Made by a program: the position numbers and the translations under genes. Shown here piece after piece: positions 48,520 to 50,398 of a stretch of 64,000 nucleotides of DNA (positions are counted from its first letter, which is position 1; each line of letters starts with the position of its first letter). This stretch comes from Candidatus Borrarchaeum weybense (GTDB lineage: Archaea > Asgardarchaeota > Sifarchaeia > Borrarchaeales > Borrarchaeaceae). The notes beneath the pieces were generated by a model. The model ran no database searches. It was given only the letters and a program-made list of their open reading frames with translations, and had not been told where the DNA came from. The DNA is taken from contig JAHQJS010000007.1 of the NCBI GenBank assembly GCA_019057385.1, positions 523,585 to 587,584 of the forward strand, in the 5' to 3' direction.

Positions 48520-48648
48520 TTATGATTCGAGCGTAAATGTAACAACGGCACCTTCATCAATTTCTTCAATTTCTGTGATCTCAGCTTTTACTTTAAGTTC
48601 TTCTAGCAAGAACCTAAAGTCATCAAAGTAGTCGTAAAACCCGCAAGT
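48520..48648 (-). pseudogene. Displaced 3' half of a homolog of the 50135-50398 gene
   Basis: Translates TCGFYDYFDDFRFLLEELKVKAEITEIEEIDEGAVVTFTLES*. It has no start codon and an in-frame TAA immediately upstream. Confidence 0.85.
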
Positions 48649-50260
48649 TTATATAGATATTTTTTTTAATATATATGGAATTTTAAATTAAGGAGAACTT
48701 AATTTGGGAAAACATAGAAAGACTAGAAGACTTTATACTAAAGAAGAACTACTTGAAAAACTGAGAAATTGGGCTGATAAACATGGGAAATCACCAACTC
48801 AACGAGAAATAGAAAAAGATTCAAGTATGCCTAGCTATGTGACGTACATAAGAGCATTCGGATGTTTTAATAATGCAAAAAAAATGTTGGGACTAAAAGT
48901 AAATAATTCTCGAAGACAATATACAAATGAAGAACTTATTGATAAATTGAAAGAATGGGCAGAAAAACATGGAAGAAGTCCAGAATCCGATGATTTGGAT
49001 AAAGATAAGACAATGCCCTCCTCAAACACATATTGGCGAATTTTTGGCAGCGTTAATAATGCAAAGAAACTTGCAAATTTGCCAATTTTCACATTTGATT
49101 CAAAATTGAATCATACAGGAGAACTCCTCAAAGAATGGAGAAATGAGAGAAAGGGGGAACTTTTAGAGAATTCTATAATAAATTACTTGAAAACACTACA
49201 ACCGTTTGAAGAATTTCTGAATGAAAGAGGTAAAGAAATACAAGATTTAAAAATTGATGATATTGAAGACTACTTTTTAAAGATTAAAGATATGTATACA
49301 AGGTATACTCTGAGAATAAAATTCACCGCTTTTCGAAATTTCTTTGATTTCATTCTTCGCAAGGCGATCATTGAAGAGACTGAACCACTTATTGACATTA
49401 AAACAATAGAACTTGCAAGAATCTTTTTCAAGAGATTAATAAGAACTATAGATGATGATAGAATTGAAGATTGTGCTTTAACAGAAAAAGACGTGATAAT
49501 AATAAAAGAGAAGTTAAAAGATTATCCAATGTTGCATAATCTATTTATTCTTGATCTTAACTTAGGGCTGAGGGCAAGTGAATTTGCAAAGATAAAGGTT
49601 ACAAAGGGTTTTATTAAAAATACAAAACAGGCTAGCAAAGGGGATATTTGGATTGACCTCAACCGAGGGATTATGATGATTTATCGGAGTAAAACTAGAA
49701 GACCTCACCTAGTTTCACTTACTAAAGAAATGAAAGGAGTGGTAGAAAAACAATTATTATTACGTAAACTGCATGGAATCGAACATGAATATTTTTTCTT
49801 TTCTAAAAGAGGCTATCCATTACAAAAAGACAATATATTTACTTATTATAAGGAAATATCGACAATAACAGGCATAAAAGTAACATCTCACAAAGTGCGA
49901 CGTACAATGTCTACAATGTTAGAAAAACGTGGAGTTCCACATGCGCTAATTCGTATGCGGATGGGACATATACCAAAAGATGGAACTCAACTATATCAAA
50001 GATACTCTATAGAAGAACGCCAAGAAATCATGGAAGAAAAAATTGGTATTCTTTAAAAACATTGAGAATAAAAGGCATTGACACCATAAAGAAATCGAGA
50101 CTTTCTTCATAAAGAATAAGCAGATTTTTCTACTTCATTTTAAACTAAATTTAGCTATGCCACCTTCATCCGTTTCCTTAATACCGATAATTTTGCTCGT
50201 AAGGCCAAAATCTTCTAATAAAAAACGAAAATCATCAAAATAATCATAAAATCCACAAGT
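48649..50260. mobile_element. Putative minimal integrative element: integrase plus replacement gene fragment
   Basis: Bounded by two homologous copies of a gene 3' half, with homology starting at the same codon. Confidence 0.6.
48704..50056 (+). CDS. Tyrosine recombinase/integrase with two N-terminal homing-endonuclease-associated repeats
   Basis: YT.EEL...L..WA.KHG.SP......D..MPS..TY.R.FG..NNAKK occurs twice. Catalytic GLRASE, RSKT, HKVRR, MGH and Y are present. Confidence 0.9.
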   Translation: MGKHRKTRRLYTKEELLEKLRNWADKHGKSPTQREIEKDSSMPSYVTYIRAFGCFNNAKKMLGLKVNNSRRQYTNEELIDKLKEWAEKHGRSPESDDLDKDKTMPSSNTYWRIFGSVNNAKKLANLPIFTFDSKLNHTGELLKEWRNERKGELLENSIINYLKTLQPFEEFLNERGKEIQDLKIDDIEDYFLKIKDMYTRYTLRIKFTAFRNFFDFILRKAIIEETEPLIDIKTIELARIFFKRLIRTIDDDRIEDCALTEKDVIIIKEKLKDYPMLHNLFILDLNLGLRASEFAKIKVTKGFIKNTKQASKGDIWIDLNRGIMMIYRSKTRRPHLVSLTKEMKGVVEKQLLLRKLHGIEHEYFFFSKRGYPLQKDNIFTYYKEISTITGIKVTSHKVRRTMSTMLEKRGVPHALIRMRMGHIPKDGTQLYQRYSIEERQEIMEEKIGIL

Positions 50261-50398
50261 GTGGCAATGCCCAGTAAACTCAATTCTAAATTTACTATTA
50301 TCAATTGAGATTAATCTAGCTATAACTTCAGGAGTTCGATATTTGTTATACTCTTCGATCGTTTTCTTTAGTATTTTTTCCAATGACTGCTTCTTCAA
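50135..50398 (-). CDS. Conserved archaeal small CxxC protein
   Basis: YNKYRTPE...IEFTGHCHTCGFYDYFDDF. Confidence 0.75.
   Translation of the reverse strand: MKKQSLEKILKKTIEEYNKYRTPEVIARLISIDNSKFRIEFTGHCHTCGFYDYFDDFRFLLEDFGLTSKIIGIKETDEGGIAKFSLK

Follow-up and report, generated by a model that had tools for sequence, protein, structure and literature searches.

A compact, probably site-specific integrase element that carries a replacement 3′ end for its target gene in the Asgard archaeon Candidatus Borrarchaeum weybense

Mobile DNA is known to integrate at gene 3′ ends and to repair the reading frame of its target, and the insertion described here is a compact variant of this strategy. It lies in a stretch of 64,000 nucleotides of the Candidatus Borrarchaeum weybense genome (contig JAHQJS010000007.1, positions 523,585 to 587,584; this whole stretch is called the window below) and consists of one intact tyrosine integrase gene and a foreign 3′ half for the gene of a small CxxC protein. 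Islands and prophages are said, following Williams in 2002, to target tRNA genes or the 3′ ends of protein genes and to carry a copy of the end that they displace. As in islands and prophages that target 3′ ends, the attP side here bears the 3′ part of the target, the gene survives and the native end is displaced to the far side. However, the duplicated end of such elements is generally known to be near-identical and to come with many genes, whereas here the identity is about 75% over the first 50 nucleotides and there is no cargo. Archaeal integrases of the pNOB8 type stay intact on integration, as opposed to those of the SSV type. The integrase gene here is likewise whole in the integrated state, so that it does not show the split organization of the SSV type; its likeness to the pNOB8 type lies in this intact state, and we know of no N-terminal HNH_repeat array, such as the one it carries, in integrases of either type. 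Cryptons are DNA transposons of eukaryotes with a tyrosine recombinase as their sole product; they occur in many copies, choose their targets loosely and do not replace them. With the present element they share the single gene, the lack of terminal inverted repeats and a junction identity of a few bases, which can be read as a functional analogy only; unlike Cryptons, the elements here are single-copy and each is tied to one gene.

The elements described in Thaumarchaeota by Krupovic et al. (2019; PMC6563490) are multigene and range from 2.6 to 140 kb, with a median of 16.8 kb; their attachment (att) sites can measure as little as 8 bp, and element sequence restores the reading frame of the target. 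Some of them, such as NitEve-E2 in a zinc-finger gene, resemble the element here in having the integrase at the border, in targeting the 3′ end of a protein gene and in being recognizable from empty sites (PMC6563490). However, the NitEve-E2 example replaces 8 non-homologous nucleotides (PMC6563490), whereas here 41 codons, or half a protein, are replaced by sequence that is homologous but strongly diverged. Within Asgard archaea, aloposons encode giant genes and insert at tRNA genes (PMC8813620), while the integrative elements of Atabeyarchaeia measure 7.9 to 12 kb, carry cargo and use an 11-bp att motif (PMC11529989). Like our element, both live in Asgard hosts and use tyrosine integrases, but no integrase-only element in a protein gene is described in either study (PMC8813620, PMC11529989); we considered aloposons as possible relatives and rejected them on account of their unrelated content and target. 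At 1.63 kb, with no cargo and 5 bp of exact junction identity, the element is smaller than any in these three studies (PMC6563490, PMC8813620, PMC11529989), and we found no Asgard element of this kind in the literature examined.

The insertion spans window positions 48643-50270 (1,628 bp), and the locus is made up of the following parts:

48520-48648, reverse strand: orphan, the former 3′ end of the native CxxC gene, now displaced; 42 codons and a stop without a start codon, with TAA directly before it
48644-48648, reverse strand: ACTTG, the orphan-side (attR-like) junction, which is the left edge of homology when the two copies are aligned
48649-48703, forward strand: end of the element upstream of the integrase, read directly from the sequence
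48648-48655, forward strand: TATA-like TTTATATA, read from the sequence across the orphan-side junction, a putative promoter element
48690-48695, forward strand: AAGGAG, read from the sequence, 8 nucleotides ahead of the TTG start of the integrase
48704-50056, forward strand: tyrosine integrase of 450 amino acids, assigned from Pfam and an alignment with XerD
50057-50134, no strand: spacer of 78 bp that separates the stop codons of the convergent integrase and chimeric genes, partly conserved in contig L053
50135-50260, reverse strand: replacement 3′ half for the CxxC gene, brought by the element; 41 codons and a stop, in frame with the native 5′ half
50256-50270, reverse strand: gene-side (attL-like) junction, made of ACTTG (50256-50260) and 10 nucleotides of uncertain origin (50261-50270, the Gly-His-Cys-His codons)
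50271-50398, reverse strand: native 5′ half of the CxxC gene, with a TTG start at 50398 and 96-98% identity to empty-site contigs
50135-50398, reverse strand: intact CxxC gene of 87 amino acids, made of the native 5′ half and the 3′ half from the element

A preliminary description of this DNA, drawn from its letters, had placed an intact gene, an orphan and an integrase at these positions and proposed a cargo-free tyrosine-recombinase element of about 1.6 kb. All of these features were found where it put them. The 450-codon integrase, which starts 55 nucleotides from the orphan-side junction, is indeed the only gene between the two copies, and apart from it and the gene half we found no open reading frame in 48643-50270, and thus no cargo, replication or transfer genes. 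Contigs from other sequencing runs span both junctions without differences, so the arrangement is not an assembly artefact; in a related copy, the junction between gene and integrase is spanned by L053, a contig from a different project. At 100% identity this integrase occurs once in the genome. The insertion does not resemble an insertion sequence or a transposon, since it has no notable inverted repeats and sits in one specific target gene. The 11-6-11 palindrome (7 of 11 matches) that had been suggested at the reconstructed circle junction turned out to be at chance level: such a match occurs in 1.0% of all 28-mers of the window and in 2.4% of the AT-rich ones, and its register had been chosen freely.

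The orphan repeats the last 41 residues of the intact CxxC protein on the same strand and in direct orientation. The first 16 residues are identical in the two copies although 10 of the 16 codons differ synonymously, as had been noticed at the outset, and over the 41 residues the identity is 58.5% (tblastn E 1e-14 to 3e-16). The conservation of the duplicate is at the protein level only, and the 4.18-Mb genome contains no further copies. Several comparisons tell which copy is native. Over the orphan and about 140 nucleotides downstream of it, the DNA hardly differs from that of contig L051, which has an empty site, and it is also close to L052 and L054; a strain-level metagenome allele (P0025) equals the orphan over all 42 residues. 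Orphan-type tails are also carried by the same-genus orthologues and by the other strain-level metagenome alleles. The in-frame tail scores 124 against itself and 35-56 against the native tails of the genus, while the orphan scores 87-122 against the same set of tails. The in-frame tail is unlike all strain-level and same-genus native tails; it resembles that of L053, which also lies beside this integrase. On the other side of the insertion, the native 5′ half and about 440 nucleotides upstream of it are 96-98% identical to L051, L052 and L054. The gene order agrees, the orphan lying about 285 bp from a GNAT-like gene and the intact gene of the same-genus genome G004 about 290 bp from a GNAT-like gene. 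Together with the empty-site joint described below, the native-type tails, the DNA match to L051 and the gene order show that the orphan is the displaced native 3′ end and that the in-frame half is foreign, as the preliminary description had it. Compared with functional alleles the orphan is undecayed, which indicates that the insertion is recent.

The element is polymorphic in its presence, with precise empty sites in G004 and in contigs L051, L052, L054 and L055. The CxxC gene of G004 is uninterrupted, the four strain-level contigs carry a gene of 89 amino acids, and the gene order of L054 is that of the window minus the insertion. In addition, a contig from sediment run X5, which belongs to another study, joins 48642 to 50271 and skips the 1,628 nucleotides, with a native 19 nucleotides between. 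At every empty site the 5′ half is followed by a tail of the orphan type. Had the two gene pieces been tandem paralogues, relatives would be expected to hold two complete genes side by side; what they hold is one uninterrupted gene. The element is absent from the closest strains, including those at a synonymous divergence (dS) of 0.05 in host genes, and from the same-genus genomes.

The integrase comprises, at its N-terminus, two HNH_repeat units of a kind associated with homing endonucleases (PF18780, E 3.6e-28), a SAM-like core-binding domain (PF02899, E 3.3e-07; 30.9 bits against a cut-off of 22.3) and a catalytic domain (PF00589, E 2.3e-17; 63.8 bits against a cut-off of 27.1). Its closest solved relatives are XerD and XerA (E 1e-6 to 5e-6). 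When aligned to XerD (1a0p), the motifs GLRASE, HKVRR, MGH and LYQRY match R148, H244/R247, H270 and Y279; the lysine of the beta-hairpin is present but lies three residues off the aligned XerD position, and this residue is uncertain. The CxxC gene is single-copy and conserved across the phylum, the source names of its homologues being those of Asgard archaea (Promethearchaeota, Kariarchaeaceae, Thorarchaeota). Its protein matches no Pfam family, apart from a sub-threshold NifU match (E 0.018), and no fold in PDB at E <= 0.001. A confident structure prediction (predicted local distance difference test score, pLDDT, of 91) shows a duplicated alpha-beta-beta fold whose halves are linked by the CxxC loop. 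It is precisely the second of these halves that the element exchanges, with the junction in the loop between them, and both tails retain the conserved residues.

Some observations on the CxxC gene and its surroundings may be recorded here. One of the homologues has a Bathyarchaeota source name, and some bear the Joint Genome Institute (JGI) label 'superoxide reductase', for which we see no support here. In G004 a four-gene operon lies directly upstream of the CxxC gene, between it and a gene of 239 amino acids (L038:7996-11749); it encodes a Fer4/BFD ferredoxin-like protein, a protein of 482 amino acids that belongs to no family, a QRPTase-like protein and a protein with a MoCF_biosynth domain. 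The genome G001 (contig L039) has a gap of equal size at the position of the operon, and both the present genome and L054 are entirely without it.

Contig L053 documents a related element in the CxxC gene of a second host species. It has a different 5′ half and a different flanking gene, a tail of the element type, and a convergent integrase C-terminus in which 67 of 71 residues are identical to ours. The nonsynonymous divergence (dN) between the two integrases is 0.028 and the dS is 0.46, compared with a dS of 0.90 for the host flank gene between this genome and L053 (bootstrap P 0.036), a difference that mildly favours horizontal movement of the element. The element-borne gene half has a dN of 0.11 and a dS of about 1.7 between the two element copies. 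The resulting dN/dS ratios, about 0.06 in the C-terminus of the integrase and about 0.07 in the gene half, show purifying selection on both, from which it can be argued that the chimeric gene works. Since the element is found in L053 but not in strains at a dS of 0.05, gain or loss events must have taken place.

The genome contains three paralogous integrases, 30-39% identical to this one. The insertions of the family members, delimited by using related genomes as empty sites, are listed here with those found in other genomes and contigs:

int4, C7:670584-672413, 2.19 kb: integrase only; the MFS gene that it faces in convergent orientation has its last 13-14 codons replaced
int2, 1.68 kb relative to genome G002: integrase and a dispersed repeat of about 180 nucleotides; the end of a gene for a membrane protein of 227 amino acids is replaced
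G003:C143, 1.66 kb: integrase only; the C-terminus of an enzyme-like gene of 320 amino acids is replaced, with an orphan present
L049, 2.1 kb: integrase only, intergenic, upstream of a gene
L048, 3.2 kb: integrase and a radical SAM gene, between two convergent genes
int3, G003:C15 and G004:C27, larger or less sharply bounded: integrase and a small RHH-like gene

The family thus consists of very compact elements, with an integrase alone or an integrase and one to three small genes. For three paralogues the insertions are integrase-only and measure 1.7-2.2 kb; each faces a different host gene in convergent orientation and replaces its last 6-14 codons, and several members have inserted in this way into the last codons of a different gene and carry a replacement end of their own. 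The int4 insertion is clean when compared with G004, G001 and G002: a core CTTTAG is common to attL, attR and the empty site, and the native end of the MFS gene (FSLAGAVIAILLPKI and the stop) persists as an orphan. Four different targets show this minimal, convergent, end-replacing design, which we take as the strongest argument against an independent decay of larger elements. Integrase matches at E <= 1e-20 occur only in this genus among 400 genomes of the phylum. In a set of 1.84 billion representative proteins most matches cover the N-terminal repeats only, about a dozen clusters at 50% identity match over the full length, and the closest full-length homologues are 50-59% identical; scans of metagenome, genome and viral contig collections for peptide patterns gave nothing closer. 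In ten integrase loci no tRNA gene was found. A protein-level comparison of the flanks of L048-L050 and of the G003 and G004 paralogues revealed no convincing duplicated gene fragments except for int1 and int4, and the only DNA direct repeats in L048-L050 are the internal repeat units of the integrases themselves. The association between integrase and CxxC gene that the preliminary description expected therefore holds for this integrase and its close copy in L053 and does not extend to the paralogues, which target other genes.

Individual family members show further features. The int4 element (G000 C7:669293-672632, about 83 kb past the end of the window; loci L006-L008 and L058-L060) encodes an integrase of 609 amino acids with four HNH repeats. 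The dispersed repeat near int2 lies just upstream of its integrase at L004:1294-1473 (C7:592716-592895). Further copies are found at C7:236444-236623, C7:366698-366880 and C8:187421-187602, with about 73% identity between copies, and many more occur in all four same-genus genomes; it has no Rfam match and could be a miniature inverted-repeat transposable element (MITE)-like sequence or an unlisted small RNA. At G004:C27 (L046:9115-11919, compared with G000 C5:77401-78360) an integrase, a small RHH-like gene and an open reading frame of 133 amino acids interrupt a gene of 319 amino acids, whose sequence suggests a putative thioredoxin reductase. About 487 nucleotides of this target are missing, so that here a family member breaks its target. 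The element at L048:9701-12897 has an integrase 58% identical to ours, and its cargo, a radical SAM protein of 406 amino acids, is without counterpart in this genome; the two convergent genes that flank it are adjacent in G000 C4. The int3 region is bracketed by highly similar short stretches (C6:735027-735129 and 783094-783153), about 48 kb apart, which may be tRNA-like or may be att repeats of a larger element.

We read window 48643-50270 as a cargo-free, site-specific integrase element that supplies its target gene with a replacement end and belongs to a small family of such compact elements restricted to this genus, and we put the probability of this reading at roughly three in four. The element would have been a circle beforehand, and the integrase would have inserted it into the CxxC gene of the chromosome by recombination in or beside the codon for Thr within the CxxC loop. 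The native 5′ half would thereby have been fused in frame to the foreign 3′ half, so that the gene stays whole, and the native 3′ half would have been shifted 1.6 kb away, where it would be silent as an orphan. The integrase may still be active today, and the element may move between cells.

The exact position of the crossover is less certain than the insertion itself. The DNA identity of the two copies begins at ACTTG, as first proposed, and extends over 5 bp; a clean crossover at that point, which the same proposal implied, is not supported. Before the Thr codon the intact gene reads Gly-His-Cys-His, while the nearest empty alleles read Gly-His-Phe-Cys-Phe/Tyr and are 3 nucleotides longer. 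Going along the 5′ half, the sequence ceases to be identical to the strains at ACTGG|G, 10 nucleotides upstream of ACTTG. His-Cys-His occurs at both occupied sites and, among empty alleles, only in the G001 lineage, and the strain alleles are mosaic over the first 15 nucleotides of the 3′ half. The element may thus have integrated into a His-Cys-His allele, or a locus that already held the element may have been brought in by homologous recombination. The longest block common to both copies is TTTGATGA, 21 nucleotides further in. A crossover at this 8-bp block was considered for its length and for its place in invariant Phe-Asp-Asp codons and was judged unlikely: the 21 nucleotides to its left in the orphan equal the native allele of L054, and those in the intact gene are not strain-like.

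The G001 allele itself (L039, G001:C64:5193 onward, compared with window 50213-50260) is of the His-Cys-His type; the nine codons that open its 3′ half are of the element type and those after them of the native type. This codon switch could be the scar of an old excision or of recombination between copies, or it could be due to chance. Beyond the CxxC allele, the G001 contig ends in unrelated GC-rich sequence.

Several points weigh against our reading. The 10 nucleotides to the left of ACTTG (50261-50270) differ from the nearest empty alleles and about 13 native nucleotides are present at neither junction, so that a simple conservative exchange into a strain-type allele does not yield the observed junction. 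The overlap used by tyrosine recombinases is usually 6-8 bp and the exact identity here is only 5 bp; in L053, moreover, ACTTG is not conserved and reads ACATG. The dS is higher in the element-borne gene half than in the integrase (1.7 and 0.46), the former being based on only about 23 synonymous sites. The closest full-length homologues of the integrase (50-59%) do not adjoin CxxC genes. The source-study runs X2 and X4 gave no circle junction or excision joint, though these were searched as contigs only, which drop rare variants, so that this negative counts neither for nor against activity. No RNA run is listed among the public runs. Finally, no replication, transfer or excisionase gene is present, and spread from cell to cell thus lacks an account.

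This same poverty in genes would be expected of a decayed remnant, that is, of a larger integrated plasmid or provirus stripped by internal deletions to an integrase and an att-adjacent fragment and now immobile. The irregular junction would fit such a history as well, as would the existence of relatives with cargo, namely L048 with its radical SAM gene and G004:C27, G003:C15 and int3 with a small RHH-like gene. We nevertheless consider it unlikely. Integrase-only insertions of 1.6-2.2 kb are seen in four or five independent members of the family, at different targets, and it is improbable that all decayed in parallel to the same state; the integrase is intact and under purifying selection, the orphan is undecayed and the insertion recent, and the same arrangement of gene and integrase is found in the second host (L053). 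A history that bears on the junction more directly is that an occupied His-Cys-His allele of a donor strain replaced the empty locus through crossovers in the flanks, in which case the integrase need not have acted in this lineage at all. It would account for a 5′ half that turns foreign 10 nucleotides before ACTTG next to an orphan that is native from ACTTG on, for the mosaic strain alleles and for the distribution of His-Cys-His. However, no strain-level donor allele combining His-Cys-His with an orphan-type tail was found, the int4 junction is clean and conservative without any such tract, and the first entry of the element into any allele is left unexplained. We regard homologous import as distinctly improbable, and it would complement integration by a site-specific element and not replace it.

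The preliminary description went further and saw in the locus a possible isoform switch, by which the host would toggle the CxxC protein between two C-terminal halves by means of the integrase. Precise joining at ACTTG would give an in-frame gene, of 88 amino acids, with the other tail, and a switch would suit the conserved residues of both tails and a junction that falls in a loop of the pLDDT 91 model. But the two copies are direct repeats and the excised circle would have no replication gene, so that excision would be a one-way change and not a reversible toggle. The element is missing from the closest strains and the same-genus genomes, its in-frame tail is of a foreign type, and the paralogues treat an MFS transporter, a membrane protein of 227 amino acids and an enzyme-like gene of 320 amino acids alike; this proposal did not hold up, and we think it very improbable. 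Two gene pieces that resemble each other and point the same way on one strand could also have arisen from tandem paralogues or a partial duplication with an unrelated integrase between them, or from an assembly chimera. Such origins are hardly credible here, given the single gene of the relatives, the identity of the orphan with native 3′ ends and the foreign nature of the in-frame half, the fact that the segment skipped in the empty allele is exactly the integrase and one gene half, and the independent contigs across both junctions.

The integrase element as we read it goes beyond the prior archaeal descriptions that we found in three respects: the integrase stands alone, half of a protein is swapped for a foreign copy that is conserved at the protein level, and the family recurs at different genes. 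A bolder proposal, which we put forward tentatively and with more doubt than conviction, is that these are 'homing integrases', autonomous single-gene elements whose modular array of homing-endonuclease-type repeats would retarget the recombinase to the 3′ end of one conserved gene. Their diverged replacement end would block deletion by the homologous recombination of the host, and, much like homing endonuclease genes, they could persist at near-zero cost and be passed on when Asgard cells exchange genes. If this were true, one gene and a short site might be turned into compact, programmable integration tools. If the element proves not to be autonomous, it would still be a well-documented case of gene-end replacement at the strain level in an Asgard population. 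If it is autonomous, it would set a lower bound on the size of site-specific mobile DNA in archaea, and the family would offer a natural series of integrases with differing targets and differing numbers of N-terminal repeats in which the encoding of target choice becomes testable. Through elements of this kind, lineages may quietly swap parts of conserved genes with one another.

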